From the NCBI GenBank assembly GCA_023898585.1, contig CP060229.1, positions 205,388 to 245,706 of the forward strand: a stretch of DNA of 40,319 bases, written 5' to 3'. The notes beneath the pieces were generated by a model that saw nothing but the letters and a program-made list of their open reading frames with translations, made no database searches and was not told the DNA's origin. The stretch comes from Candidatus Nomurabacteria bacterium (GTDB taxonomy: Bacteria; Patescibacteriota; Minisyncoccia; Phycocordibacterales; UBA918). The position numbers were made by a program, and so were the translations under genes. This document shows, piece after piece, positions 12,978-37,714 of this stretch (its first letter is position 1; the number at the start of each line of letters is the position of its first letter).

Positions 12978-13709
12978 TTACTTTGTTTGCTTCCATATAA
13001 ACTTCACAAACTGTCGTTGCAAATCTGCCATCGCTTGATTCTCAACTACCACTGCGTTCAAATCATCAAATGAAACAAGTAACAATTTGTCTCCTGCAAT
13101 AGTTATGTCAACAGAGAAGATGAACTCTTTGGGCAACAACTTTGATTTTGCAACTGGCCGTCCCCACTCTTCTTTTACATATTGAATTCCAGTTGGTGTA
13201 TTGAGCACAAGGTCACGCAAACTTCCCCCCTCACTCTTAATATTAGACAGAAACTCTTCCCCATCTTTCTGAGAAAAAACCTGAAAGTAACGTTCAGCTG
13301 CAAACATTGACCAAACGGTATGTGAAGTTTTCGTAATTTCTCTATACAAATTACGAAGAGATTCCTTTCCTTCATAAAATCTCAAAACTGGACGAGAAGA
13401 CGAATAAGCAAACATATTTTGTAGTTGGGGTAGTGCATCCTGAATACGTTTTTGCGCAGTTTCTGACATTTTTAATACTCTTTTAGGGTCTTCAGGATAG
13501 TACATTACTCTTTTACCAACAACTGTCTTACGAATCAGATCACACGCTACTATTCTATCGACGTACTGATAAATAGTTGGTCGCTTCAGCTCAGCATTGC
13601 GAGCAATGTCTGTCACTGTACTTTTTCCATGTTTTAAAACAGCCAAATAAACAGCGATTTCGACTTTATTTAACCCGATAGATGCCAAAGATTTAGAGAT
13701 GTTTTCCAT
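12978..13709 (-). CDS. TrmB-family transcriptional regulator
   Basis: N-terminal winged HTH ..IGLNKVEIAVYLAVLKHGKSTVTDIARNAELKRPTIYQYVDRIV.. is typical of TrmB-type regulators. The ORF-track start at 13712 is TTG, so I use the adjacent ATG. Confidence 0.75.
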   Translation of the reverse strand: MENISKSLASIGLNKVEIAVYLAVLKHGKSTVTDIARNAELKRPTIYQYVDRIVACDLIRKTVVGKRVMYYPEDPKRVLKMSETAQKRIQDALPQLQNMFAYSSSRPVLRFYEGKESLRNLYREITKTSHTVWSMFAAERYFQVFSQKDGEEFLSNIKSEGGSLRDLVLNTPTGIQYVKEEWGRPVAKSKLLPKEFIFSVDITIAGDKLLLVSFDDLNAVVVENQAMADLQRQFVKFIWKQTK

Positions 13710-26195: not shown

Positions 26196-26383
26196 AGAAA
26201 CTGTCTGAAGTCTCATCGGAGTCCAAAGTGGCTAAAAATATGTGTGAGAGACAAGCTGGAGCACGAGGCATATCGGGATATGTTGAGTGCGAAGCGTAGT
26301 CTCTCGCTCATATTTTTAGCTACGACGACCCGAAATGAATTAAAATAACAATTATTTTCATGGTGAGACTTCAGACAGTTTCT
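26196..26383. repeat. Nested inverted-repeat element (20-bp perfect outer arms plus an inner long hairpin)
   Basis: agaaactgtctgaagtctca (26196-26215) is the exact reverse complement of 26364-26383. The inner imperfect stem is gctaaaaatatgtgtgagagac (26231-26252) / gtctctcgctcatatttttagc (26299-26320). Confidence 0.7.
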
Positions 26384-27863
26384 TGATCTTTAATCGGCTC
26401 AAATCCAATACTTGATCAATGTGTATTTTACTCACAAAATCAGGTACATGAGACACCAAAATCATCGCCCCTTTGTAATCATGCAATGCCTTAGCTATCA
26501 CCGGAATATGTCTGAAATTAATATGATTGGTCGGTTCATCGAGAATGAGAAGTCCGGGCTCTTCCATTTTTAATTTAGCAAAAGCCACCAGGCCCTTCTG
26601 CCCTTCGGAAAGATCTCCAACCTTGGTTTTCATTAAGTCTCCAAAGAGAATGAAGCCGGCTGCGATTGAACGCATCTCCTCTTCTAACTTTCTTTTCATT
26701 GAATCCATCAAAGTTTCAAAAACCGTTTTGTCAAAATCCAAATTTGAAAAATCTTGTCGATAATAACCGATACCGACACCGCGAGCCACTTCTTCACCCT
26801 TAGCATGACCACCGGCCAAACTTTCCAATAATGTTGTTTTGCCGATACCGTTTGGTCCCATTATTTGCAAATGTTCTCCTCGCTTTAAGACAACATCACA
26901 TTCGGCGATTTTTGGCTCATGATTTTTAATAACTTGTACCGAGGTCAGTTTCAAAACTTCAAGCGGTATATCTTTGTGTGGTTCGATAGTAAAAGGGCGA
27001 ATGGTTTTATCTTCACGCCTGACATCCACTTTACTTGCTTCACTTTCTTCAATATCAGCTCTCATCTTTTTTGCTACCAAACGCATCTTCCCCCCTTTGG
27101 ACGCAAAATAATTTATTTTGTCTTTATCAGCCTGGATTTGTTTTGCCAATTGAGCGTTTTGTCTTTTTTCTTTTTCCACTCTCGCTACAATTTCTCTCAG
27201 CACCGCGTGGTAGTTACCGTTGTACTGTTCAACTTGTCTATTTTGAGTATTGAGGTAAAGCACACCGTGAGTAAAAGCATTTAGAAAATCCGCATCATGA
27301 GAAATGACGATCACCGTCTTGCGATATTCTTTGAGAAACTCCGTCAAATGTTCGATGCCGTTGCTATCCAAATTATTGGTTGGTTCATCAAGTAGTAACA
27401 CGTCTGGATTTTGAATAAGTGCTGAAGCCAGAAGCAAGCGGGCTTGCTGACCACCAGAAAAACTGCCGATGATTCTGTCTTTGAATGTCGCCTTTATTTT
27501 TTCAGTTGGAATTAGATTCACCACTTCCAGTATTTCATCAATCCTAGGGTCGATATTGTACACCTTCTCGGTAAAACATTTTTCGAAAAATTCTCGCACT
27601 GTGAGCCCGAGTTCATGGCGAGGAATAATTTGCCTAGCAATCGCAATGGAGGTACGCGGTTGAATATTTATATCACCTTCATGTGGCTGAAGCAGTCCGG
27701 TAATCAATGAAAATAAGGTCGATTTACCGGCTCCATTTTGCCCCATCAAAGTCAACTTCGCTCCACGACGCACCACAAAATTCGCCTCTTTTAAAATCGG
27801 CTTGGTGGCATCGTACTCGTACGACACGTCTTTAAAAACAATCAATCCGTCATTATTTGACAT
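26358..27863 (-). CDS. ABC-F family ATPase (two nucleotide-binding domains, no TM domain)
   Basis: Walker A motifs GQNGAGKST and GPNGIGKTT, signature motifs FSGGQQARL and LSEGQKGLV, and a charged inter-domain linker. Confidence 0.92.
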   Translation of the reverse strand: MSNNDGLIVFKDVSYEYDATKPILKEANFVVRRGAKLTLMGQNGAGKSTLFSLITGLLQPHEGDINIQPRTSIAIARQIIPRHELGLTVREFFEKCFTEKVYNIDPRIDEILEVVNLIPTEKIKATFKDRIIGSFSGGQQARLLLASALIQNPDVLLLDEPTNNLDSNGIEHLTEFLKEYRKTVIVISHDADFLNAFTHGVLYLNTQNRQVEQYNGNYHAVLREIVARVEKEKRQNAQLAKQIQADKDKINYFASKGGKMRLVAKKMRADIEESEASKVDVRREDKTIRPFTIEPHKDIPLEVLKLTSVQVIKNHEPKIAECDVVLKRGEHLQIMGPNGIGKTTLLESLAGGHAKGEEVARGVGIGYYRQDFSNLDFDKTVFETLMDSMKRKLEEEMRSIAAGFILFGDLMKTKVGDLSEGQKGLVAFAKLKMEEPGLLILDEPTNHINFRHIPVIAKALHDYKGAMILVSHVPDFVSKIHIDQVLDLSRLKIKKLSEVSP

Positions 27864-28190
27864 GGGAGTAGACTATACACGACACAAGGTAACGATGCAA
27901 AACTGGCTTGCTTGCGCTTATAATTTTATTAATTGTTCAAAATAACTAACCACAGCTATCTTGTACTAATTTTCTCCACAAAGATCTCATATGTGAGAAT
28001 AGTAATTAATTACTAAGATTGGACACATATGTCACACAGATCACCAATAGGTAATAAGGTAGATACTAAATAAAATGAGAAATCAGCGCATGACTCAGTA
28101 CATACAAGCGACACAACTAACTCCAGGCGGAGTATATTTCTTCAAGAAACTATCCTCTATGCCAATTGTATTGTAAATTTATTATATTTG

Positions 28191-28209
28191 TGTATACTTG
28201 ACACTAAGT
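28191..28209 (+). promoter_or_regulatory. Island motif copy a (TGT-N6-GACACTAAGT), candidate NrtR box
   Basis: tgtatacttgacactaagt. Confidence 0.55.
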
Positions 28210-28282
28210 TAGTATTTTGCTAACTTACATGTAGTTGCTGAGGAAAAGGGTTGCTACTGTAGCAACCACATATCTTCTCGTA

Positions 28283-28301
28283 ACTTAGTGTACTTTATAC
28301 A
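28283..28301 (-). promoter_or_regulatory. Island motif copy b, candidate NrtR box
   Basis: The minus strand reads tgtataaagtacactaagt. Confidence 0.6.
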
Positions 28302-28352
28302 GTAAAAAATTAACTGACATAGGTCTCGCGAGAGATCAAAACTTATCAGATA

Positions 28353-28371
28353 ACTTAGTGTAAGTAATACA
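28353..28371 (-). promoter_or_regulatory. Island motif copy c, candidate NrtR box
   Basis: The minus strand reads tgtattacttacactaagt. Confidence 0.6.
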
Positions 28372-28608
28372 CTTCTAATGAGCTGGTGCGTTCGAGGGCA
28401 AAGTCTGGAGCGCTCCAGCTCATCGGAAGGTGAGGAAGTCTAGGAGACTTTCCCAATACCTTGCCAGACATTTCTGGAGTTTACGAACAGTAATATCGGC
28501 AAGGTGTACAGCACCTGTAAAGTGAGCTTGTTCTTTGAAAACCGCATACCGCATTAACACTTCCCTAACGAGGCAGTAGCCTCACCACTTCTAATAAGGA
28601 GAACGACG
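28372..28608 (+). other. Long structured leader upstream of the pncA-like gene (candidate cis-regulatory RNA)
   Basis: Stems at 28378-86/28415-23 (9 bp), about 28434-40/28446-53, and 28458-65/28498-505 (8 bp). Long-range ggtgagg (28429-35) pairs with cctcacc (28580-86) just before the SD. Confidence 0.4.
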
Positions 28609-29439
28609 ATGAAAGTACACCTGCTGGTCATTGACCCTCAGAATGATTTCATGGATCAACCGAAGGCCGCATTGCCGGTTGCAGGAGCTATGGAAGATAT
28701 GAAGCGACTAGCTACCATGGTCGACCGCGTTGGAGCAAAACTTCAGAAAATCCACGTCACCCTCGATAGTCACCACCTGGTAGACATCGCTCACCCAGCC
28801 TTCTGGCGTGACAACAGTGGTGTGTCACCGAATCCGCTGACCATCATATCGTCTGACGCCATTAAGGATGGTACTTGGGTACCGCGTCGACCGGAGCTAC
28901 GTAATTATGCCACCGGCTATGCTGAAGACTTGGAACGTGCCGGAAAGTATCAGTTGATGGTGTGGCCACCACACTGCCTCATTGGTAGCTGGGGCCACAA
29001 CATACAGTCTGACCTCTCTGCCGCACTGGATCGCTGGAGCGATGCTCGGGTTCGTAATGTAGACTTCGTAACCAAAGGCACCAACGTGCTCACCGAGCAC
29101 TATGGCGCCCTCCTGGCTGAGGTTCCAATCCAAAATGACCCATCGACACAGCTCAACGGCCGATTCTTGCAGATGCTACAGGAGGCCGATGTTATCGCCG
29201 TCGCCGGTGAAGCATCGAGCCACTGTGTAAAAGCAACTGTAGAACAGGTGGCCGATAACATCGGAGAGGAGCACATCAAGAAGTTCCGCCTGCTCAGGGA
29301 CGCGATGTCGCCAGTTTCAGCCGTGACTGCACCTGACGGTTCGGTCATTGTTGACTTCCCCGCTATCGCTAACCAGTTTCTCAAGGATATGGCCAGCCGT
29401 GGTATGAAGTTGTCGAACACTGTTGACTTTCTGGCTTGA
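28609..29439 (+). CDS. pncA: Nicotinamidase-like cysteine hydrolase (isochorismatase family)
   Basis: VIDPQNDF (catalytic Asp region), VWPPHC (nicotinamidase-type metal-binding motif) and AGEASSHCV (catalytic Cys). Genomic context with pncB and nrtR. Strong SD aaggag. Confidence 0.8.
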   Translation: MKVHLLVIDPQNDFMDQPKAALPVAGAMEDMKRLATMVDRVGAKLQKIHVTLDSHHLVDIAHPAFWRDNSGVSPNPLTIISSDAIKDGTWVPRRPELRNYATGYAEDLERAGKYQLMVWPPHCLIGSWGHNIQSDLSAALDRWSDARVRNVDFVTKGTNVLTEHYGALLAEVPIQNDPSTQLNGRFLQMLQEADVIAVAGEASSHCVKATVEQVADNIGEEHIKKFRLLRDAMSPVSAVTAPDGSVIVDFPAIANQFLKDMASRGMKLSNTVDFLA

Positions 29440-29450
29440 GCAACAAAACG

Positions 29451-29471
29451 GGCGGTGGCAAAGCCACCGCC
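29451..29471 (+). promoter_or_regulatory. Intercistronic GC hairpin between pncA and the vWA gene
   Basis: Perfect 9 bp stem ggcggtggc-aaa-gccaccgcc with no U-tail. Confidence 0.5.
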
Positions 29472-29504
29472 AACACAAACATTCACAATCAAGAGGATAC
29501 TTCC

Positions 29505-30305
29505 ATGAACGATACAATGAATGACTTTTCCTTTGGCAGCGGCTTCCAGTTCTCGGGCGCCACCATCGACAACCTCGAGGCCTCCGAGTACACCCTGGTC
29601 ACCATCGCCCTCGATGAGAGTGGCTCGATCAGTGGATTCGAATCGCAGATCGAGGACATGCTGAAGGCCGCCGTCGGCGCGTGCTTCAGCTCACCGTACT
29701 CTAACAACCTGCTCATTCGTGTGATCCGTTTCGGTTCACAGTACAAACACCAGAATGGCAACGGCGTCGACGAGATACATGGCTTCAAGCCGCTCTCGGA
29801 GATCGACGTGAACGCCTACCCCAATCTGCGCGGCGGTGGCGCAACACCACTCAACGATGGAGTCTACTCATCGGTTGGCGCTATGAACCAGTACGCTGAA
29901 AGCCTGGTCGATCTCGACTTTGCCGTCAACGGCATCACCTTCGTCATCAGCGACGGTGGCGAAAACGCCTCAGTCGCAACGGCGAAGATGGTCAAGGACG
30001 AACTCAAGAAGTCGGTCACCGGCGAAGTGATGGAGTCACACCTTTCCATCTTGATTGGTATCAATATAGTTACCGATGATATGAGAAAGAGAAATCCAAC
30101 CTACGCAAAGCAGATCGAAGCAAAAGTCGAGCAAGACCTAGAGAACTTCCAGCGTGATGCAGGTATGAGCCAGTTCATCTGGGCCGGCGAAGCGACCAAA
30201 AGCAAACTCGCGAAACTGGCAGAGTTTGTTTCGCAGTCGATCTCGTCTACCTCCCAGGCACTGGGAACCGGCGGACCGAGCCAAAACATCTCGGCCACCA
30301 TCTGA
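29505..30305 (+). CDS. von Willebrand factor A domain protein (YegL / TerY-like)
   Basis: MIDAS motif in ..VTIALDESGSISG.. (DxSxS) and vWA-fold length. I take the start at MNDTMNDF after the hairpin and the SD aagagga. The ORF-track start at 29436 is a TTG overlapping the pncA stop. Confidence 0.8.
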   Translation: MNDTMNDFSFGSGFQFSGATIDNLEASEYTLVTIALDESGSISGFESQIEDMLKAAVGACFSSPYSNNLLIRVIRFGSQYKHQNGNGVDEIHGFKPLSEIDVNAYPNLRGGGATPLNDGVYSSVGAMNQYAESLVDLDFAVNGITFVISDGGENASVATAKMVKDELKKSVTGEVMESHLSILIGINIVTDDMRKRNPTYAKQIEAKVEQDLENFQRDAGMSQFIWAGEATKSKLAKLAEFVSQSISSTSQALGTGGPSQNISATI

Positions 30306-30334
30306 GGTAGCCTTCGGCTACATGTTCTTTTACC

Positions 30335-30353
30335 GGAGGCGCTTCGCGCCTCC
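30335..30353 (+). terminator. Rho-independent terminator after the vWA gene
   Basis: ggaggcgc-ttc-gcgcctcc followed by ttttatt. It is preceded by the smaller hairpin gtagcc..ggctac (30307-30321). Confidence 0.75.
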
Positions 30354-30359
30354 TTTTAT

Positions 30360-30378
30360 TGTACTTAATACACTAAGT
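30360..30378 (+). promoter_or_regulatory. Island motif copy d, candidate NrtR box directly upstream of the PP2C gene
   Basis: tgtacttaatacactaagt, ending 17 nt before the ATG at 30396. Confidence 0.6.
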
Positions 30379-30395
30379 ATACAAGGAGAAACCAC

Positions 30396-31301
30396 ATGAA
30401 ACTCTTTACCGACCACAGCTTCCACATTGGGGAGCAACACTTACGCCAAGGCAAACCTTGCCAAGACTATGCTCTTTCGGGTAGCCTCGGACGTGAGACT
30501 GCATATGCGATCGTGAGTGACGGCTGTTCCTCAGGTGGGATGACAGACATTGGCTCGCGCTTGATGACACTCGCTACCCTTCGCGCACTGCATGAGCAAA
30601 TACCGAGCAACGACTTCGCAACAAGGGACAGCGATATCGCCCGTGATACCTACCTCGAATCTTCAAGACTAAATCTGCGACTTGAGACAAAAGACCTTTT
30701 AGCTACCTGTCTCTGGGCTGTCGTACATAAAAACGAAGTGGTGATTAACGTCACTGGTGACGGTGTTGTAGCATTGGAGTTCGAAGCAGGAATGATCATC
30801 AAGACCTTTTCCTGGCAAAAGAATATGCCGTACTACCCAGCATACCGAATCGGTGGTATGGATGAACCATTCACTGAGAATCATTCAGACAATCTTGCTC
30901 CACTAACAATCATCGAGTCGGTAATCGTGACACCAGGAGGTGATGTTCAACTTACCAACAATGTCGTGACAAAAGGTGTGAGTGTGAGAGAGGGCATGCG
31001 CGGTATCGTATACACCGAAAGTATCATTAATACCGCCCTAGGGAACCTTCGCACCGTCGCACTCTTCTCTGATGGTATCGAGCAGATCGATCAAATTGAA
31101 ACCGTATCTGCAGTCAAAGCGCTCTTGTCCTTCAAAAGTGTCAGTGGTCAATTCGCCGTCCGGCGAATGAACCGCTTTCTACAAGACGTAAAGAAACAAG
31201 GCCGCGGACCGATAGACGATATCGCGTACGCTGTTATTCACTCAGAAAACAAGGAGACAGATCATGTCAACAATCAAACGACCGAAAAAAGTAACACTTG
31301 A
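30396..31301 (+). CDS. PP2C-family Ser/Thr phosphatase-like protein (YegK/PphC-like)
   Basis: ..GKPCQDYA.. and ..AIVSDGCSSGG.. match the PP2C_2-type N-terminal metal-binding motifs. Strong SD aaggag. Confidence 0.75.
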   Translation: MKLFTDHSFHIGEQHLRQGKPCQDYALSGSLGRETAYAIVSDGCSSGGMTDIGSRLMTLATLRALHEQIPSNDFATRDSDIARDTYLESSRLNLRLETKDLLATCLWAVVHKNEVVINVTGDGVVALEFEAGMIIKTFSWQKNMPYYPAYRIGGMDEPFTENHSDNLAPLTIIESVIVTPGGDVQLTNNVVTKGVSVREGMRGIVYTESIINTALGNLRTVALFSDGIEQIDQIETVSAVKALLSFKSVSGQFAVRRMNRFLQDVKKQGRGPIDDIAYAVIHSENKETDHVNNQTTEKSNT

Positions 31302-32991
31302 AGGTTATGGTGATCTCACTCTACGGACAGCCGACTACGTCACTGAAGGTGGCGAGGGAGCGATATACCGCAAAGGAGGCTATATCATCAAGCTCTACCA
31401 TGACGCACAAAAAATGCAACGAGACGATATGTCCGAGAAGATTCACCTTTTAGCATCGTCACTCAAGCACCCATCGATCGTAACGCCGAAGGGTTTGGTG
31501 ATCGATAGTAACGAAGCCATAGGATACTATATGCCCTTTGTACAAGGCGAAGCGTATCCCAAACTTTTCACCAACGACTTCCGTAACCAAAACGGCATCG
31601 ACACACTAGGTGTGACCCACCTGGCCACGAAAATGCATGAAGTTGTAGATTACGTACATAGGCAAGGAGCTCTCTTGGTCGACGCCAACGAGCTCAATTG
31701 GCTGGCGGACATCAAAGATGTCCGCCAGCCAACCCCCTACGTCATCGACGTCGACTCGTGGCAAATCGATCACTTCAAAGCTTCCGTCATCATGCCATCC
31801 ATTCGAGATTGGCACGGAAGTATCAGCGAGGCTTCGGATTGGTTCTCTTGGGGTATTGTCACTTTTCTCTTATACACAGGTATCCACCCATACAAAGGCA
31901 ATCTCGACGGCTACAAACCGGGTGAACTGGAACGACGTATGAAGAACAACGCTTCTGTCTTTTTACCAGGTGTCCGTCTTAACAAGGCAGTTCGCGACTT
32001 TAGGATCATCCCAGGTCCACTCCTTGATTGGTATGAGGCGACATTCACGCAAGGTGAACGGACTCTGCCACCCTCGCCTCAAGCGACCGGCAAAGCCAAT
32101 ACTAACCTAGGTCAGATCATGCGCGTCGTCACCACGCAAAGTGGTGGACTTATCTTCGAGCGATTGCTCGAGGTGCCTGGCGAACGGGTTGTATCGATCT
32201 GGCCGTGCGGCGTAGTTCGTACCAATGCTGGCACTCTGGTCGATGTCGCAACCAAGCGCACCATTGGACAAACCAGCAACGGACGCGTCGCGGTGGTAGG
32301 TCGTGACAACGGCTGGGTCATTGTGGAAGAAGTGAGTGGAGCCTGGCAGTGGCGCTTTATCGACCGACGCGGCACTGAAAGCACACTTACGGTGCCACTT
32401 ACAGTAACCACCATACTCCGCAGTGGTGAACGACTCTTCGCAGTCACCGAGTCCGAACTCATCGAACTCACCCTGCAAGCGTTCAGCAAGCCAGTACTCA
32501 CGTTAGGAAATCGGTGGCAGATACTCGGGAAGGGTACCCGGTGGTTTAGTGAAGTCGGGGTAAGTAATATCCTTGGTGCCATGCACCTCATTGCACCATA
32601 TGGTGCCAACGCAGTCGCTATGGTGCGTACCTCTGAACTCGACGGACTCACTGTTGTGAACGCCAAGGCTGGCACTCGGTTTGTCGTCGTTGTGACGGTA
32701 AGCCATAATGGTGAGTACGAGGAGCATCGTTTTGCCTTCGATAAAAACTGGAAGCAATACCAGTACGATCGCGAGCTGGTGGATGGATCCGAACTCAACC
32801 TCACCATCCTCCCGAAAGGCGTGACCGCTTCGATCAGGGACGACGGCGAGCTCATCATCGCAGTGCCGTTTCAGGGCGATAAAAAGGTCGTGTCTGATAG
32901 AGATATATGCACCAATCTGCGCCTCGCTCACATCATAGACAAGGTGGTCTATCAAAAAGATGGCGTCTTGTGGTCACTGGGTATGCGGTAA
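31264..32991 (+). CDS. Atypical Ser/Thr protein kinase (YegI-like) with a ~290-aa beta-rich C-terminal domain
   Basis: Gly-rich loop EGGEGAIY, Lys in IIKLYH, catalytic-loop-like LVDANELNWL, and DVDSW in place of DFG. As I recall the E. coli YegI sequence, it shows the same non-canonical pattern. Overlaps the PP2C gene by 38 nt. SD aaggag. Confidence 0.75.
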   Translation: MSTIKRPKKVTLEGYGDLTLRTADYVTEGGEGAIYRKGGYIIKLYHDAQKMQRDDMSEKIHLLASSLKHPSIVTPKGLVIDSNEAIGYYMPFVQGEAYPKLFTNDFRNQNGIDTLGVTHLATKMHEVVDYVHRQGALLVDANELNWLADIKDVRQPTPYVIDVDSWQIDHFKASVIMPSIRDWHGSISEASDWFSWGIVTFLLYTGIHPYKGNLDGYKPGELERRMKNNASVFLPGVRLNKAVRDFRIIPGPLLDWYEATFTQGERTLPPSPQATGKANTNLGQIMRVVTTQSGGLIFERLLEVPGERVVSIWPCGVVRTNAGTLVDVATKRTIGQTSNGRVAVVGRDNGWVIVEEVSGAWQWRFIDRRGTESTLTVPLTVTTILRSGERLFAVTESELIELTLQAFSKPVLTLGNRWQILGKGTRWFSEVGVSNILGAMHLIAPYGANAVAMVRTSELDGLTVVNAKAGTRFVVVVTVSHNGEYEEHRFAFDKNWKQYQYDRELVDGSELNLTILPKGVTASIRDDGELIIAVPFQGDKKVVSDRDICTNLRLAHIIDKVVYQKDGVLWSLGMR

Positions 32992-33041
32992 AGGAAGCAG
33001 ATATTGTTCTTTCTGGAATCCTTGGATTTATTATCCTTTTG

Positions 33042-33060
33042 CCCGGCGCTTCGCGCCGGG
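33042..33060 (+). terminator. Rho-independent terminator after the kinase gene
   Basis: cccggcgc-ttc-gcgccggg followed by ttttt. It shares the 13-nt core ggcgcttcgcgcc with the terminator at 30335. Confidence 0.8.
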
Positions 33061-33100
33061 TTTTTCATATCACCAATAATTATCCAATCAGGTTTTGCTA

Positions 33101-33130
33101 TTGACAAAATCGACAATTATATTATTATAA
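33101..33130 (+). promoter_or_regulatory. Candidate sigma70-type promoter for the zinc-finger miniprotein gene
   Basis: A perfect TTGACA at 33101-33106 is followed by an A/T-rich -10 region (..attatattattataaa..). The exact -10 hexamer is ambiguous. Confidence 0.4.
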
Positions 33131-33166
33131 ATGTTGCTGTTCAATCATTAAAAAGGGAGAAAAAAC

Positions 33167-33415
33167 ATGGCGAAAAGTTGCGCCGGTGGTTCATGCCCAA
33201 ACACTGGTGGCTATTGTCCATCAGATGGTAGCTTGGCTGGATGTTCAAGAGTAAGCAGTGCCGTGGCACATAACAGTAGGAGCAGTGGAAACGCGATGGT
33301 TACTTGCACTCATTGCCTTGGATCAAAATTAATCATATGTTCGATCTGTGGTGGTAGTGGAAAAATGCCAATGTTAACAGCTCGACGTAATGCTCCTGGC
33401 CATAGGCATCTCTAA
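33167..33415 (+). CDS. Cys-rich miniprotein with DnaJ-type CxxCxGxG zinc-finger motifs (82 aa)
   Basis: CTHCLGSK and CSICGGSGK (CxxCxGxG pattern) plus four more N-terminal Cys. It has its own SD (agggag), promoter candidate and terminator. Confidence 0.65.
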   Translation: MAKSCAGGSCPNTGGYCPSDGSLAGCSRVSSAVAHNSRSSGNAMVTCTHCLGSKLIICSICGGSGKMPMLTARRNAPGHRHL

Positions 33416-33433
33416 ACTCTAATCAAAATCTGA

Positions 33434-33457
33434 AAACCGGCGAATTATCGCCGGTTT
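33434..33457 (+). terminator. Terminator after the miniprotein gene
   Basis: aaaccggcga-atta-tcgccggttt. Confidence 0.7.
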
Positions 33458-33623
33458 AGTTATTTTACACTGTCTCCTTAGGTAGCGATTTTGTGCAATT
33501 GACTCAACACGATACCGCAACTAAACATCGGGCGCGAGCTCAAAACGATTCAAATCGATCCGACCATGTGACAAACGATGAACCTCCCTCAGCAGGAGCT
33601 GGGGTTTTATATGGTTATAAAAA

Positions 33624-33648
33624 ACCTGGTCGCTGTGGGCGACCAGGT
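33624..33648 (-). terminator. Rho-independent terminator after pncB
   Basis: acctggtcgc..gcgaccaggt, followed by ttttt on the minus strand. Confidence 0.8.
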
Positions 33649-33656
33649 CATAATTT

Positions 33657-34994
33657 TTATACCACTGTCTCACGCGCTACTTCGCCGACCTTGGCAAAGA
33701 GCCGATCGTACCGAGCGATCTCAGCCAAATCCTCCCCCGAGTGCTTGTTAGGGTTGTCAGACAGCTTCACCGTCGGCAGTCCATTAGCTTCAACAACTTT
33801 TATCACCATAGACAAAGTGTGAAATCCGGTGTCTTTCGGCAGGATGTCGTTGATGTTATTGGTCGCTCCGGTTCCCCACCCAAAAGTGAGCACACCCACT
33901 TGGTCGTGGAACTTTCGCCACAACTCAACCATACGATTAGGTGTCAGACCATCTGACGGGATGATCACTTTTTTCAGCGGGTCCTCACCGTTGTCGCGGA
34001 ACCATTCGACGATCTCTGGAATCGACTGTTCTTCCACCTTTGAATCGATTCGCACCCCTTTGGTAGCGACTGCAATCTCGCGCGACGCACCTTGAAGGAA
34101 CGCGGTCGTTCGATAAGTATCAGGTAACAAGATTGCAAGCTCCGGATAAAAACGGTTCCATCTCTCTACCACATCGTAGGGCGAACGTTTGATCCATTCA
34201 TCTGAGTTGCCATTTAATGTTGACCAGACCATTGGAAGTTCATGCGCATTAGTGCCCCTCGGATTGTTTTGTCCGGTCTTAAAAGCCAACCAGACATTGG
34301 AAGGAGCAATGCACTGCTTTGGCAACAACTCATCAAATACTTCCTGTACGATCACTTCCCACATTCTTGAATGACGCCGACGATGTCCAAACTGTGCAAA
34401 TGTCAGTCCTGGGTGTTGTGCCAACTGCTTACTGTCACGCACGACACGTTGATAAAGCTCAGCGTAAAAAGTACTGAACTCAGCCCTGCTGATGCCACGC
34501 TTTTGCCACAGGTGCCAGTAATAGAGCTCGGAGATGATTGCCATCGCTGACGTTTCCCAGTTCATGACTGACAGCCACGAGCCATTGAACGACAGTTTGA
34601 TCTCTCCGCTAGGCAGATAAATCAGCTCATACTCGGTCAGATCGCGCCGTTTCAGCTCGTCGATAAACTCGATCGGGAAGAGTGCCCGCTTCTTACCGTC
34701 AACTTGTTCAACAGTCATTCCGCTGAGTTGAGACAACTCAGTCTCGGTGTATTGTAGTTTCATGAGTACATCCAACTGTTCGCGCAGTGCTTCCTCAGGT
34801 ATGACCATGCCCAACTTTACACCCTTGGTTCGCATAGTCAGTTTGAACTTCACCGGAACGTCGGCCATACCTTCTCTCCAGATGAACTGACCCATAACAA
34901 ACTTATATATGTCTACATCCAGTCGCGAGGTAATGATAGCATCGCCATCGCTGTTGGCTGGAGCAAAGATTTTACGTGGACTTATGAATGTCAT
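33657..34994 (-). CDS. pncB: Nicotinate phosphoribosyltransferase
   Basis: 445 aa. N-terminal ..DVDIYKFVMGQF.. (TDxYKxxM-type), ..FGWGTGATNN.. and ..VKLSDNPNKHSG.. match NAPRTase family patterns. Strong SD gaggagg. Confidence 0.85.
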   Translation of the reverse strand: MTFISPRKIFAPANSDGDAIITSRLDVDIYKFVMGQFIWREGMADVPVKFKLTMRTKGVKLGMVIPEEALREQLDVLMKLQYTETELSQLSGMTVEQVDGKKRALFPIEFIDELKRRDLTEYELIYLPSGEIKLSFNGSWLSVMNWETSAMAIISELYYWHLWQKRGISRAEFSTFYAELYQRVVRDSKQLAQHPGLTFAQFGHRRRHSRMWEVIVQEVFDELLPKQCIAPSNVWLAFKTGQNNPRGTNAHELPMVWSTLNGNSDEWIKRSPYDVVERWNRFYPELAILLPDTYRTTAFLQGASREIAVATKGVRIDSKVEEQSIPEIVEWFRDNGEDPLKKVIIPSDGLTPNRMVELWRKFHDQVGVLTFGWGTGATNNINDILPKDTGFHTLSMVIKVVEANGLPTVKLSDNPNKHSGEDLAEIARYDRLFAKVGEVARETVV

Positions 34995-35072
34995 GAGACA
35001 CCTCCTCTAAAACATAATTTGTTTAGTTGGTTAGATTTCAAAGATCAATTTACTTTGTGTGTATCTAACAAT

Positions 35073-35101
35073 ATCCTATACATTTCGTTTGTTGTTGTCA
35101 A
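35073..35101 (-). promoter_or_regulatory. Candidate pncB promoter (-35 TTGACA, 17-nt spacer, -10 TAGGAT)
   Basis: Read on the minus strand. The -35 hexamer is the terminal part of motif copy e. Confidence 0.5.
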
Positions 35102-35114
35102 TGGTACACTAAGT
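35096..35114 (+). promoter_or_regulatory. Island motif copy e, candidate NrtR box overlapping the pncB -35
   Basis: tgtcaatggtacactaagt. Confidence 0.6.
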
Positions 35115-35160
35115 AAAGGGTGATTTTTTTGCTTTTGTTCTATATTCATTCTCTGTCCTC

Positions 35161-35832
35161 TTACGCAAACAACTCTAATTCGAGCAGGTTTTTGCTTGTG
35201 AACTCATGTAAAGATGCAGGGCGGTTTTTAACGCCTTCTTGCATCGTACCAGTGTCTTTAACAATATCGAGTGATAATACTTTTTTGCGAAAGTTTCTTT
35301 TATCAAATTTTCTACGCAGAACAATCTCATATACTGACTGCAATTCAGAGAGCGTGAAATGTCTCGGCAATAGATATTGAGCAATTGTGGTATATGATAG
35401 TTTTCCTTGTAGACGTCTTACTGCCATGTTAAGCATATCGTCATGATCATAGGCTAAATTCTTAAGCTCTCTCACTGGAACGAACAGTGCCTTTTCGTGA
35501 GTATACGTCGCCACCACATCAGGGCGAACCAGGCCGATGTATGCTACGGAAACTACCCTATTTCTCCTGTCCCTCTTCACCGCACTAAAAGTATACAATT
35601 GTTCTGTATAAACCTGTTTGAGTCCTCCCTTCTCCGACAAGATCCGATCGCAGGTTTCTTCGGCAGTCTCCTTGGAGTCAACTATTCCCCCTAAAAAACC
35701 GAGTACATTTACGTAGTGAGGGGGACGGTTCACTGGTGCAACAAGTGCGTACAACTCTTCGTCAACAAAACCAAACACAACAACATCTACTGCCATAGCA
35801 GCAAAACGTAATTTCTCCGGGGCTTTTTTCAC
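35161..35832 (-). CDS. nrtR: NrtR-type Nudix-related transcriptional regulator
   Basis: N-terminal Nudix fold with a degenerate Nudix box (GIVDSKETAEETCDRILSEKGGL). The C-terminal wHTH segment ..FTLSELQSVYEIVLRRKFDKRNFRKKV.. is characteristic of NrtR. The ORF-track start is GTG, and an internal ATG (M13, 35796) is an alternative start. Confidence 0.8.
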   Translation of the reverse strand: MKKAPEKLRFAAMAVDVVVFGFVDEELYALVAPVNRPPHYVNVLGFLGGIVDSKETAEETCDRILSEKGGLKQVYTEQLYTFSAVKRDRRNRVVSVAYIGLVRPDVVATYTHEKALFVPVRELKNLAYDHDDMLNMAVRRLQGKLSYTTIAQYLLPRHFTLSELQSVYEIVLRRKFDKRNFRKKVLSLDIVKDTGTMQEGVKNRPASLHEFTSKNLLELELFA

Positions 35833-35833
35833 A

Positions 35834-35852
35834 TGTTAATTGTACACTGAGT
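35834..35852 (+). promoter_or_regulatory. Island motif copy f, candidate autoregulatory NrtR box abutting the nrtR start
   Basis: tgttaattgtacactgagt (one mismatch in the TAAGT part), beginning 2 nt from the GTG start. Confidence 0.55.
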
Positions 35853-35944
35853 CCTTTCGGTTTGACAACCTTTGATCGAAAATCAAGACTGGGCTTTCAA
35901 ACCAACTGGACATCTCCGTCGAGATAATAAAAGATTGTACCTAA

Positions 35945-36538
35945 CTATTCAAAATCAGAATTGGTCACTGTGCCGTAATCAACCAGTAATTGACCGCAGG
36001 CCATGGAATAAGAAAGTGATTCGTTATCCTGTCTAGTAATTTCTCTCAAACAAACAAGGCCTGGAGTCTGTGCGCTTTGCCAACCTCGAACAGAACTCAT
36101 ATCTGTAGGGTGATCTGCGTCATTAGCTAGAGCCGGCTCAAAGATATTCTCAAGAAAAAAATTATCAAGTGTGTTTTCTAATTGATACAAGACGCCATCC
36201 TCCTTTCTTGTTAGATCTTGAACAGATAGGTCGTTCATTCTGATCTCAGTCCCCGAAACTTTGGCAATTCCGCTTACGTTAGCAAATCGCCAGTAAAATT
36301 GGTGGTTGGTTGGTTCAACTGAGTGAAGGTCTGGATAGCGATCTGTGAATCTTTTCAAAATATCACCTTCCAGTGTCTTAACAACCTTATCTTTAGTATC
36401 ACCTTCGGTCATCTCCTCTGACTTGTCTGACTTCGGATAATCACAAACTGAAACAACGTTATTTTGCTGTATCGCAAATTCATAATTTTTTTGAGACACG
36501 ATTCCCAACCAAAACCCCAAAAAATGGTAGAGTAACAA
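35945..36538 (-). CDS. Hypothetical protein. The N-terminus probably continues in another frame up to 36653 (frameshift at a homopolymer).
   Basis: The ORF begins with TTG inside a hydrophobic segment. An upstream 57-codon ORF (36480-36653, ATG start) ends in the same hydrophobic segment one frame away. Confidence 0.55.
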   Translation of the reverse strand: MLLYHFLGFWLGIVSQKNYEFAIQQNNVVSVCDYPKSDKSEEMTEGDTKDKVVKTLEGDILKRFTDRYPDLHSVEPTNHQFYWRFANVSGIAKVSGTEIRMNDLSVQDLTRKEDGVLYQLENTLDNFFLENIFEPALANDADHPTDMSSVRGWQSAQTPGLVCLREITRQDNESLSYSMACGQLLVDYGTVTNSDFE

Positions 36539-36667
36539 AAAGCGCCAAAGCCAAATACTTGGAAACCGGTGTAACCACCGTTAAAGGATAATACCAAGTC
36601 TCACTTTTAAACCCCTCTTCACGCACATCGGATTTAGTTTTTTCTGTGTTCATATTACCAAAGCTAC

Positions 36668-37714
36668 CTACCCCATCTCTTTCACCTTCTGCAGAGCGAC
36701 CACGTACATACTCTCCGCCCAGCCGAGCGGGGTGTTGTCGTTTGGTTTGTCGGTGTGTGAGTAATAAAGCTCCGGCACTTCTCCGTCTTGAGTCACGGCA
36801 TTCTTGGCTCGTCGCAGATAATAGTAAGCCTTTTCCTTATCCCCCCTCTCAGCGTAAATTATAGCCAGCCACGACAAACCAAAACACCACTCCGCCTCCT
36901 CACTATAACCGTCGATGTTGTTGTTGTAGTAACGGTCGAGTTTGTAGCGAATCACTCCCTTGTCTTTCACCAAGTGATACTCAACATTTTTCAAAATCTC
37001 TACGGTTTCCTCTTCGGTAGTCACCGCAAACGGATAGATGAGGGTAAGTAAAGCTAAGTCAGTAAACTTAGTGGTTGACTCTCTCGGGAGGAGAGCTCGA
37101 AGAGCACTTTCGCCACGCTCGATAGCTACGTCAGGCACTTCAAGCCAGTCCAACCGATTGGCTTTTTTCAACGCGGCCACCACGGAACCGATCGAGGAAG
37201 CGTGAACTTCCATGTTTTCTTCCCAGATTCCGTTATCATCGTCGTGCCAGTACTCAAGATTGACCAAGTAGTCGACTATCTTCTGTACCATTTCGCGCTC
37301 TTCATCAGTCTCAACCACACTGGCTCCCAACTCCTCGAGGGTAACGATAAGATTAAGTACCTCTCCGACTGCATCATTCTGGCTATTACCCCACTCTTCC
37401 CAATATTCTTCAAAAGTTTCCGGATTAAAGCGAGCATGAATATACTGCCAAGCATAGTGAGGTTTGTTTTCGATTGCCCAGTTGATCTTGTCTTTGTGTT
37501 TTACAAACACCGTCAGAAGGGCTTTCGCGGCATTTTGCACTGTCTTGATATCACCAGTTTCCAGAAAACCAAGAACGATGAAATAAATATCGCGCAACCA
37601 CGCTTTGTTATAAAAAGTATCATCGGAAGAAGCAGTGAAGACACCGGGCTTACCTTCCAGTTTTCGTATCACATCAAGGTGCTGTTTTATTTCGGCATCA
37701 AAATCAAAGGTCAT
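36668..37714 (-). CDS. Glycoside hydrolase family 15-like (glucoamylase-type six-hairpin) protein
   Basis: ..NKAWLRDIYF.. and ..IWEENMEVHASSIG.. resemble GH15 catalytic-region motifs. Confidence 0.7.
   Translation of the reverse strand: MTFDFDAEIKQHLDVIRKLEGKPGVFTASSDDTFYNKAWLRDIYFIVLGFLETGDIKTVQNAAKALLTVFVKHKDKINWAIENKPHYAWQYIHARFNPETFEEYWEEWGNSQNDAVGEVLNLIVTLEELGASVVETDEEREMVQKIVDYLVNLEYWHDDDNGIWEENMEVHASSIGSVVAALKKANRLDWLEVPDVAIERGESALRALLPRESTTKFTDLALLTLIYPFAVTTEEETVEILKNVEYHLVKDKGVIRYKLDRYYNNNIDGYSEEAEWCFGLSWLAIIYAERGDKEKAYYYLRRAKNAVTQDGEVPELYYSHTDKPNDNTPLGWAESMYVVALQKVKEMG

Follow-up and report, generated by a model that had tools for sequence, protein, structure and literature searches.

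We analysed 40,319 nt of DNA from a Candidatus Nomurabacteria bacterium (assembly GCA_023898585.1, contig CP060229.1, positions 205,388 to 245,706; hereafter the window), in which a 19-nt motif is repeated between the genes of a nicotinamide adenine dinucleotide (NAD) salvage island. This motif is very probably the operator of the NrtR-family repressor encoded in the same island at 35161-35832, in an uncultured lineage. As read from the aligned sites, the full operator is a 25-bp dyad, ACTTAGTGTA-N5-TACACTAAGT, with the core GTGT-N7-ACAC, and the motif consists of one strong and one degenerate arm. An earlier note on this DNA had proposed that the copies are NrtR operators; the proposal is borne out by the cognate NrtR-family gene in the island, by a reading head that matches the motif, and by conservation across genomes. 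The sites are palindromes with a GT-N7-AC core, they lie upstream of pncB, a nicotinamidase-like (pncA-like) gene and nrtR at predicted promoters, and all but one (site d) are conserved at orthologous positions. The note's description of NrtR operators as palindromes of about 21 bp with a GT-N7-AC core agrees with the original description (Rodionov et al., 2008; PMC2330246).

Copies of the motif in the window

A search of both strands of the window for TGT-N7-ACACTAAGT, with at most one mismatch, returned seven matches, against a mean of 0.17 in 100 dinucleotide-preserving shuffles, none of which reached seven. Six of these copies (a to f) were already listed in the earlier note, with exactly these coordinates and strands; f has one mismatch to the search motif, and the seventh copy, g (35052-35070, minus strand, TGTTAGATACACACAAAGT), was absent from that list. 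All seven are intergenic and span 28.18-35.86 kb. TGT and ACA are 7 nt apart in every copy, as had been stated for the first six, and the terminal hexamers quoted in the note (TTGACA at e, TTAACA at f and TATACA at b) read as given. The full sites and the regulator gene are as follows:

28185-28209 (19-nt motif 28191-28209, plus strand): operator a, 25-mer TATTTGTGTATACTTGACACTAAGT, over the predicted -35 box of the pncA-like operon
28283-28307 (motif 28283-28301, minus strand): operator b, ACTTAGTGTACTTTATACAGTAAAA, about 50-75 bp after the predicted transcription start
28353-28377 (motif 28353-28371, minus strand): operator c, ACTTAGTGTAAGTAATACACTTCTA, weak arm overlapping the 5' base of the leader hairpin
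30354-30378 (motif 30360-30378, plus strand): operator d, TTTTATTGTACTTAATACACTAAGT, between a terminator's T-tract and the PP2C gene's Shine-Dalgarno sequence
35052-35076: operator g, minus-strand sequence GGATATTGTTAGATACACACAAAGT, overlapping the last 4 nt of the predicted pncB -10 box and the predicted transcription start
35090-35114 (motif 35096-35114, plus strand): operator e, minus-strand sequence ACTTAGTGTACCATTGACAACAACA, degenerate arm equal to the predicted -35 hexamer
35828-35852 (motif 35834-35852, plus strand): operator f, minus-strand sequence ACTCAGTGTACAATTAACATGTGAA, over the predicted -10 box and the start codon of nrtR
35161-35832, minus strand: nrtR, GTG start, 223-aa product, degenerate Nudix and winged-helix domains (Pfam NrtR_WHD PF21906, 3e-22; AraR_C; NUDIX PF00293)

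The window was also scored with a position weight matrix trained on 39 sites of related genomes, the window's own sites being left out, with 20 shuffles of the window as the null. Sites a (28.0 bits), d (27.5), e (25.5), b (25.1) and c (24.4) exceed all maxima of the shuffles (7.3-21.9 bits). The best match outside the island, at 12.0 bits, is within the noise, so that the confinement of the copies to the island, claimed earlier, holds throughout the window; weak matches at 805, 13712 and 16948 were rejected, also at noise level. Strong sites are confined to the NAD cluster both in the 40-kb window and in the 8.5-21-kb loci of relatives (L201-L214; loci are cited by such numbers below).

Conservation of the sites across genomes

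The comparison loci were taken around close NrtR homologues and nicotinamidase-like homologues in Kaiserbacteria and Paceibacteria. Twelve related loci carry at least one site, and a, b, e, g and f each have positional orthologues in four to seven of them. The sites of the relatives precede the pncA-like gene, NUDIX-pncB-nadE, the NAD kinase gene (NADK), NUDIX-NAMPT and nrtR. Such orthologous promoter positions, kept across genomes with differing cluster arrangements, leave practically no chance that the copies derive from a decayed mobile or repeated element (such as a miniature inverted-repeat transposable element, MITE) or represent terminal inverted repeats of the island. A mobile origin would suit the GC content of the island (0.45-0.55, versus about 0.40-0.45 in its flanks) and its placement relative to the ABC-F gene, which differs from that in relatives; however, the likeness between copies ends at the 25-mer, and none of the island genes was seen to encode a transposase or integrase.

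We then scanned one genome per species (185,579 species) with TTANTGTA-N5-TACACTAAGT, and at least 120 stretches of 8 kb matched. Among the matches listed, an nrtR homologue is present in 19 of 120 stretches and a KRNFRK recognition helix in 18 of 120, and the open reading frames directly flanking the motif include at least 12 NrtR_WHD proteins, with NAPRTase and NadA among the others. The phyla represented in these matches are mostly Bacteroidota, together with Chloroflexota, several archaea and a few bacteria of the Candidate Phyla Radiation (CPR). The reverse test used 80 metagenome loci chosen solely for encoding a DKRNFRKK-type NrtR: the 25-mer, with at least 15 of 20 positions matched, is found 92 times in these loci versus 1-8 times in shuffles, and most occurrences flank nrtR. 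The perfect palindrome was also met in three viral contigs, none of which has nrtR or NAD genes, and these matches were set aside as uninformative.

That the cross-phylum association is with nrtR bears on whether another regulator of the NAD cluster, for example a TrmB-like protein, binds the motif while NrtR acts elsewhere. A TrmB-family gene does lie directly upstream of nrtR in L201, L205, L124 and L208, but the island keeps all its sites without a TrmB gene (a homologue with 23% identity is located at 12987-13709, 15 kb off), as do L203, L207, L209 and L210 without an adjacent one. In addition, the GTGT-N7-ACAC geometry and the 25-bp span fit a solved complex of an NrtR-family protein with DNA, and we give a regulator of this other kind only a slight chance.

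In Bacteroidota (Flavobacteriales, Mucilaginibacter, Pedobacter, Saprospiraceae), ACTTAGTGTA-N5-TACACTAAGT is found upstream of central-carbon genes (e.g., in L007, L016, L019, L052, L083 and L114), often beside an NrtR-family gene with a KRNFRK helix. The targets among the matches listed are phosphofructokinase (at least 11 loci), enolase (at least 7), GAPDH (at least 3), pyruvate kinase, PEPCK, glycogen synthase and GH31. This distribution suggests that an NrtR-family protein may regulate central carbon metabolism in Bacteroidota.

Palindromic architecture of the operator

In each copy the second side is a degenerate mirror of the first, and sites b and d fit the 21-bp palindrome TTAnTGTA-N5-TACAnTAA exactly. 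We tested the dyad on 37 sites from the window and the twelve related Kaiserbacteria loci, each oriented with its stronger arm to the right: the unselected left arm has T3 in 26, T4 in 24, A5 in 23 and G6 in 21 of the 37 sites. Positions left free in the genome scan likewise mirror the strong arm (A1 in 66, C2 in 57 and G6 in 64 of 120, among the matches listed), and at least 17 of the matches listed, from other phyla, are perfect 25-bp palindromes ACTTAGTGTA-N5-TACACTAAGT.

The earlier note had regarded the conserved CTAAGT extension as an unexplained second element, such as an UP-like or activator half-site. Its mirror, ACTTAG, is present on the opposite arm in orthologous sites, in the 17 perfect palindromes and, statistically, in the weak arms; CTAAGT thus has a counterpart across the dyad and forms the outer portion of each half-site in the 25-bp palindrome. 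An UP element or activator site would occupy a fixed place at -40 to -60, in one orientation and with no dyad partner, whereas the strong arm is placed 5' of the -35 box in e, 3' of it in a and 5' of the -10 box in f; in b, c and g it follows the predicted transcription start.

In every copy that could be resolved, the weak arm coincides with another constrained element:

e: the predicted -35 hexamer TTGACA, an arrangement met again in distant lineages
f: the start codon together with the MKKAPE codons
d: the terminator T-tract
c, and b-type sites of relatives: the hairpin of the leader, on its 5' strand

These overlaps point to an arm that degenerates where a second function constrains the same bases. 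A perfect TTGACA occurs in one fixed register in 11 of the 37 sites. Site a embeds TTGACA reading toward the pncA-like gene in the same register as e, so that a is not inverted and covers the -35 box; the description of a and d as inverted copies was an artefact of orienting a palindrome by its better arm.

The regulator: reading head and effector pocket

The product of nrtR matches the NCBIfam model NF050029, 'ADPR responsive transcriptional repressor' (4e-32), and has homologues with 64-79% identity in assemblies, about 1 Mb in size, of Candidatus Kaiserbacteria, Parcubacteria and other Patescibacteria, which places the window in a CPR bacterium resembling Kaiserbacteria. Its closest solved structures are BtAraR of Bacteroides thetaiotaomicron (5bs6, E 6e-34) and then SoNrtR (3gz5, 1e-21). 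In the BtAraR-DNA crystal, GTGT at -7 to -4 from the dyad centre is specified by residues K179, R180, N181 and K184, the dimer spans 25 bp, and the wing makes minor-groove contacts as far as +/-12 (Chang et al., 2015; PMC4666351; PDB 5bs6, 5dd4, 5ddg, 5deq).

The window protein shares both these reading residues and the operator geometry. Its recognition helix DKRNFRK (D177-K183) is identical to D178-K184 of BtAraR and, like the wing residue Arg204, is invariant in 26 aligned homologues. Five of the six BtAraR DNA contacts are identical (K179, R180, N181, K184 and R205, corresponding to K178, R179, N180, K183 and R204), and the sixth, K204 of the wing, is Asn in the window protein. The distance from GTGT to the dyad centre in ACTTAGTGTA-N5-TACACTAAGT matches that of the BtAraR operator, whereas the outer arm differs, with the consensus CTTAGTGTA here versus AAAAGTGTT and ATGGGTGTA in the crystallised BtAraR operator.

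Although the reading head is of the BtAraR type, the pocket and the regulon are of the NAD type, so that the protein is not an AraR. BtAraR senses L-arabinose and controls arabinose genes; here the neighbours are NAD salvage genes, not ara genes. The AraR pocket residues R34, F36, L67 and G89 align with V34, R36, K68 and R90 of the window protein. In BtAraR, L67 and G89 fill the nucleotide cleft, whereas K68 and R90, which are invariant within the lineage's homologues, align with the ADP-ribose contacts K76 and R98 of SoNrtR. The same cluster includes an ADP-ribosylglycohydrolase gene in some relatives. Because of the K68/R90 pocket and this gene context, we favour ADP-ribose or a related nucleotide as the effector, most likely ADP-ribose itself or a related product of NAD breakdown. 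The structure alignment shows a degenerate Nudix box (RILSEK versus REUXEE), which makes the domain a sensor rather than an enzyme.

The NrtR proteins described by Rodionov et al. (2008; PMC2330246), SoNrtR and Synechocystis Slr1690, similarly combine a degenerate Nudix domain with a domain of the winged helix-turn-helix type (wHTH), and their operators are palindromes with a GT-N7-AC core upstream of nrtR and of NAD salvage genes (pncA, pncB, nadE, nadV and prs-type clusters). The window system differs from SoNrtR in the recognition helix (GKSFRRR in SoNrtR) and the operator sequence, and from known NrtR operators in the conserved span (25 bp here, 21 bp there). It also differs from known NrtR regulons in that a module of pncA-like, unknown, PP2C and kinase-like genes is included.

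Predicted promoters and the proposed mode of repression

That the operators overlap promoters, as the earlier note had proposed, holds for several copies (a, e, g and f), given the following predictions:

28198-28226, plus strand: predicted promoter of the pncA-like operon; -35 TTGACA at 28198-28203, 17-bp spacer, extended -10 TGc-TAACTT at 28218-28226
28249-28267, plus strand: small hairpin early in the predicted 5' untranslated region (UTR), GGTTGCTAC-T-GTAGCAACC, about 16-35 nt after the predicted start
35073-35101, minus strand: predicted pncB promoter; -35 TTGACA at 35101-35096, 17-bp spacer, -10 TAGGAT at 35078-35073; 10 of 12 matches; predicted start near 35066
35839-35868, minus strand: predicted nrtR promoter; -35 TTGTCA at 35868-35863, 18-bp spacer, -10 TACAAT at 35844-35839; 10 of 12 matches; predicted start at 35832

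For the pncA-like operon, TTGACA and TGCTAnnnT, 17 bp apart, are conserved in all five aligned Kaiserbacteria upstream regions, and we infer a transcription start near 28233. The orthologues of a in L207, L208, L209, L210, L211 and L214 are near-perfect palindromes such as ACTTTGTGTATACTTGACACTAAGT. At b, the strong arm ACTTAGTGTA and TACA are conserved in five of five aligned relatives; the hexamer TATACA, once read as -35-like, is not conserved beyond this TACA of the operator. A third site comparable to c is found only in L209 and L210. The small hairpin is at the same place in relatives with a different sequence (CGCAC...GTGCG), i.e., its structure and not its sequence is conserved in five genomes, and it is possibly a 5' stabilising stem-loop. 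A second promoter at b/c, using the TACAnT arm of the operator as a -10 box, fits L207 and L208 and was rejected because it does not fit the geometry of the window.

The reading of TTGACA at e as a -35 box is upheld: relatives share its register, with a TAnnnT hexamer 17 bp on (TTGACA-N17-TAnnnT). The design ACTTAGTGTAC-N3-TTGACAAT of site e is also found in L201, L205, L207, L122 and more distant loci, and a second operator, (A/G)GATAGTGTAAGAnnTACACAAAGT, lies 37-38 bp from the first in L201, L205, L122, L124 and L207. In the window the centres of g and e are 38 bp apart; the pair thus appears to be the local version of a conserved tandem, which would cover the -35 box, the end of the -10 box and the start of pncB. 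Tandem sites are also known at some BtAraR promoters (PMC4666351).

At f, TTAACA had been suggested as a -35 hexamer, which is untenable with the GTG start codon one base later; f covers the predicted -10 box TACAAT instead, and the GTG codon follows this box after 6 nt. In L121, L122, L201, L203, L205 and L209, the half-site ACTTAGTGTA precedes the nrtR start codon by 20-22 nt, and its terminal TA opens a TAnnnT hexamer; in seven Kaiserbacteria genomes, including the window, a TAnnnT -10 hexamer is located 6-8 nt ahead of the start and a Shine-Dalgarno sequence is absent. From this combination, the nrtR mRNA is probably leaderless and autorepressed at its -10 box. A half-site-like sequence before the ABC-F start in L203 and L205 was rejected as chance or -10-like; the window has no site there.

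The hexamers also raise the question of whether the motif is a lineage-specific promoter element (an unusual or extended -10 box, or the target of an alternative sigma factor) and not a repressor site. Both half-site orientations contain TAnnnT (TACACT and TAGTGT), in several genomes the hexamer that opens with the TA of GTGTA is placed 6-8 nt ahead of the nrtR start codon, and TGTATACTT in site a looks like an extended -10 box. However, the copies occur in both orientations and in varied places (over -35, over -10, after the start, after a terminator), separate conserved sigma-70-type -35 and -10 boxes stand beside or inside the sites, and the motif is a dyad, often a perfect palindrome, that follows KRNFRK-type nrtR genes across phyla, including archaea, whose promoters are different. 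We see a very slight chance of such a promoter element.

Under the operator reading, one NrtR dimer would bind each 25-bp site, with the helix DKRNFRK reading GTGT in the major groove and the wing reading the outer ACTTA/TAAGT in the minor groove. Site a would occlude the -35 box of the pncA-like promoter, e and g would occlude the -35 box and the transcription start of pncB, and f would occlude the -10 box and the start of the leaderless nrtR, resulting in autorepression; b and c, in the DNA of the long 5' UTR, could act as roadblocks or auxiliary sites, and d is located just ahead of the PP2C/kinase-like pair. An effector bound to the degenerate Nudix domain would re-orient the wHTH domains, so that the repressor would leave the DNA and the NAD salvage genes would be turned on. 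By analogy, this is probably classical repression relieved by ADP-ribose: known NrtR sites overlap the promoter or lie between the promoter and the start codon, and ADP-ribose releases Synechocystis and Shewanella NrtR from DNA (PMC2330246).

Several observations weigh against this account or limit it. Sites f (15.5 bits) and g (16.4 bits) are borderline, and not significant by matrix score alone; they are backed nonetheless, because their positions coincide with conserved sites in relatives. Sites b and c lie 50-140 bp after the predicted start, a placement to which repression by simple occlusion is not applicable. For site d, which is specific to this genome, neither an equivalent in the related loci nor a sigma-70-like promoter was found, only two terminators directly upstream. 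The regulator is nearer in sequence to the arabinose-responsive BtAraR than to the ADP-ribose-responsive SoNrtR, and the position of Arg34 in BtAraR and Arg41 in SoNrtR is Val in the window protein. Moreover, the window is 40 kb of a genome of roughly 1 Mb, and the regulon may be larger than seven sites.

It is accordingly conceivable, if rather unlikely, that b, c and d are not simple operators: they could be roadblocks that pause RNA polymerase before the leader hairpin (described below), auxiliary sites looping with a or, for d, an NrtR-dependent internal control point. Sites b and c come after the predicted start, each of the seven instances of the leader hairpin has an operator adjoining its 5' end (from a 7-nt overlap to a 4-nt gap), and d, which begins in the T-tract of the second terminator and ends 5 nt before the PP2C Shine-Dalgarno sequence, follows two terminators without a recognisable promoter. 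On the other hand, the spacing between a and b varies from 91 to 121 bp among genomes and does not keep to a helical phase, and d occurs in this genome alone. The idea refines the operator reading and does not replace it, since the protein that binds would remain NrtR.

Known parallels and significance

Promoter-occluding repressors with tandem operators are familiar from LexA and the lambda cI type. They too have dimer sites on the -35 box, the -10 box and the start, together with autoregulation, and differ in protein family and effector logic. The kind of regulatory system is therefore known, with no new regulatory principle, and it is the lineage that is new. Transcriptional regulation in CPR/Patescibacteria is almost unexplored, no report linking NrtR with these bacteria was found in the literature searched, and ultra-small host-dependent bacteria must scavenge cofactors. 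The island provides a concrete predicted regulon for NAD salvage (a single repressor with seven operators, and three predicted promoters, of which one would yield a leaderless mRNA), with an architecture kept across many Kaiserbacteria. The DKRNFRK head and the 25-bp palindrome are common to Bacteroidota, Chloroflexota, CPR and some archaea, with differing regulons, which should aid the transfer of operator predictions between lineages.

A structured leader RNA of the pncA-like operon

Between the operators and the pncA-like gene we identified an unannotated leader RNA, which is the main scientific lead of the locus:

28371-28448, plus strand: long leader hairpin of 23 pairs (covariance model R1, 75.5 bits), adjoining the operators and outside the protein-binding motif
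28524-28545, plus strand: putative terminator-like alternative helix, 3' half TGAGCT followed by the U-tract TGTTCTTTGAAAA, which is invariant in the alignment
Leader hairpin in relatives: L207 9856-9935; L208 9858-9940; L209 9883-9964; L210 9856-9935; L211 5886-5962; L122 12553-12633 (minus strand)

The R1 covariance model has seven instances: six precede pncA-like genes, and the other, in L122, precedes a NUDIX-NAMPT operon. In the long hairpin, 96% of cells are paired and seven pairs show compensatory changes, with a covariation score of 0.418 versus 0.06-0.11 for slid controls; the 380-nt leader has a folding z of -6.0. The 3' strand of the hairpin is common to a covarying terminator-like hairpin, CCTCAnC-GGAAG-GnTGAGG, which is followed by UGUUCUUUG; the U-tract after this second covarying hairpin reads UGUUCUUUGAAAA. 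The leader of the window has an insertion of about 90 nt between the long hairpin and the U-tract. Rfam gave no credible family (window at the gathering threshold, island with E up to 5, L207 leader with E up to 10). The leader string GCGCTCCACCTC-N3-4-GAAGG has 24 matches in viral contigs, which were rejected as chance because the covariance model matched none of them.

The overlap of hairpin and terminator has the form of an antiterminator/terminator switch, with the long hairpin as candidate antiterminator. The pncA-like operon (in one relative, the NUDIX-NAMPT operon) might then be under dual control, by NrtR operators and by an undescribed structured leader RNA, a possibility that we put forward tentatively. 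The leader could be a new CPR riboswitch or protein-dependent attenuator, with an NAD-related metabolite as the signal sensed, and its switch is possibly coupled mechanistically to NrtR as a roadblock.

Genes of the island

The other features of the island are the following:

26358-27863, minus strand: ABC-F ATPase (Pfam/NCBIfam)
28609-29439, plus strand: divergent nicotinamidase-like protein of the isochorismatase fold, first gene of the pncA-like operon (NCBIfam nicotinamidase, E 1.8e-5; PDB Pnc1 2h0r, E 1.6e-5)
29436-30305, plus strand: 289-aa protein of unknown function (p289), second gene of the operon, in the same position as the ~250-aa gene of relatives
30307-30321, then a T-run, and 30335-30353, then TTTTAT, plus strand: two intrinsic terminators ending the pncA-like/p289 transcript
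30396-31301, plus strand: PP2C phosphatase (Pfam), downstream of d
31264-32991, plus strand: 575-aa protein with weak protein-kinase similarity, downstream of d
33657-34994, minus strand: pncB, nicotinate phosphoribosyltransferase (Pfam NAPRTase and NAPRTase_N; NCBIfam PRK05321, E 2e-85)

Homologues of the nicotinamidase-like protein carry the JGI name nicotinamidase-related amidase, and a few have PF00857. The two terminators stand in tandem between p289 and the PP2C gene; after the first comes ATGTTCTTTT, similar to the TGTTCTTTGAAAA tract at the terminator of the leader. A tRNA scan found none.

Four genes form a module that is kept in order and orientation beside nrtR in Kaiserbacteria/Paceibacteria (28609-32991 in the window; L207-L214): a nicotinamidase-like protein (~275 aa), an unknown protein (~250 aa), the PP2C phosphatase, and a protein (~576 aa) whose similarity to protein kinases is faint. 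Compared with PADLOC, the module matches no known defence system; the sole match is a marginal one to PD-T4-6, by the 575-aa protein (E 2.5e-4). The NAD module of relatives has this module on one strand and, on the other, nrtR, then NAD kinase in some genomes, then NUDIX-pncB-nadE; in some genomes the cluster also has prs, NMNAT, NAMPT, ADP-ribosylglycohydrolase or TrmB-like genes.

In the window, neither nadE nor a gene for NAD kinase or NUDIX-302 was detected. The gene order is GH15, ABC-F, nrtR in relatives (L201, L203, L205), and GH15, p197, nrtR, pncB, pncA-like module, ABC-F in the window (26358-37714). The window PncB is 32-33% identical to the PncB proteins of relatives, which are themselves 47-60% identical to that of L201. 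This suggests that part of the NAD cluster has been rearranged or replaced in the window, where the GC content is raised at 29-33 kb, up to 0.55.

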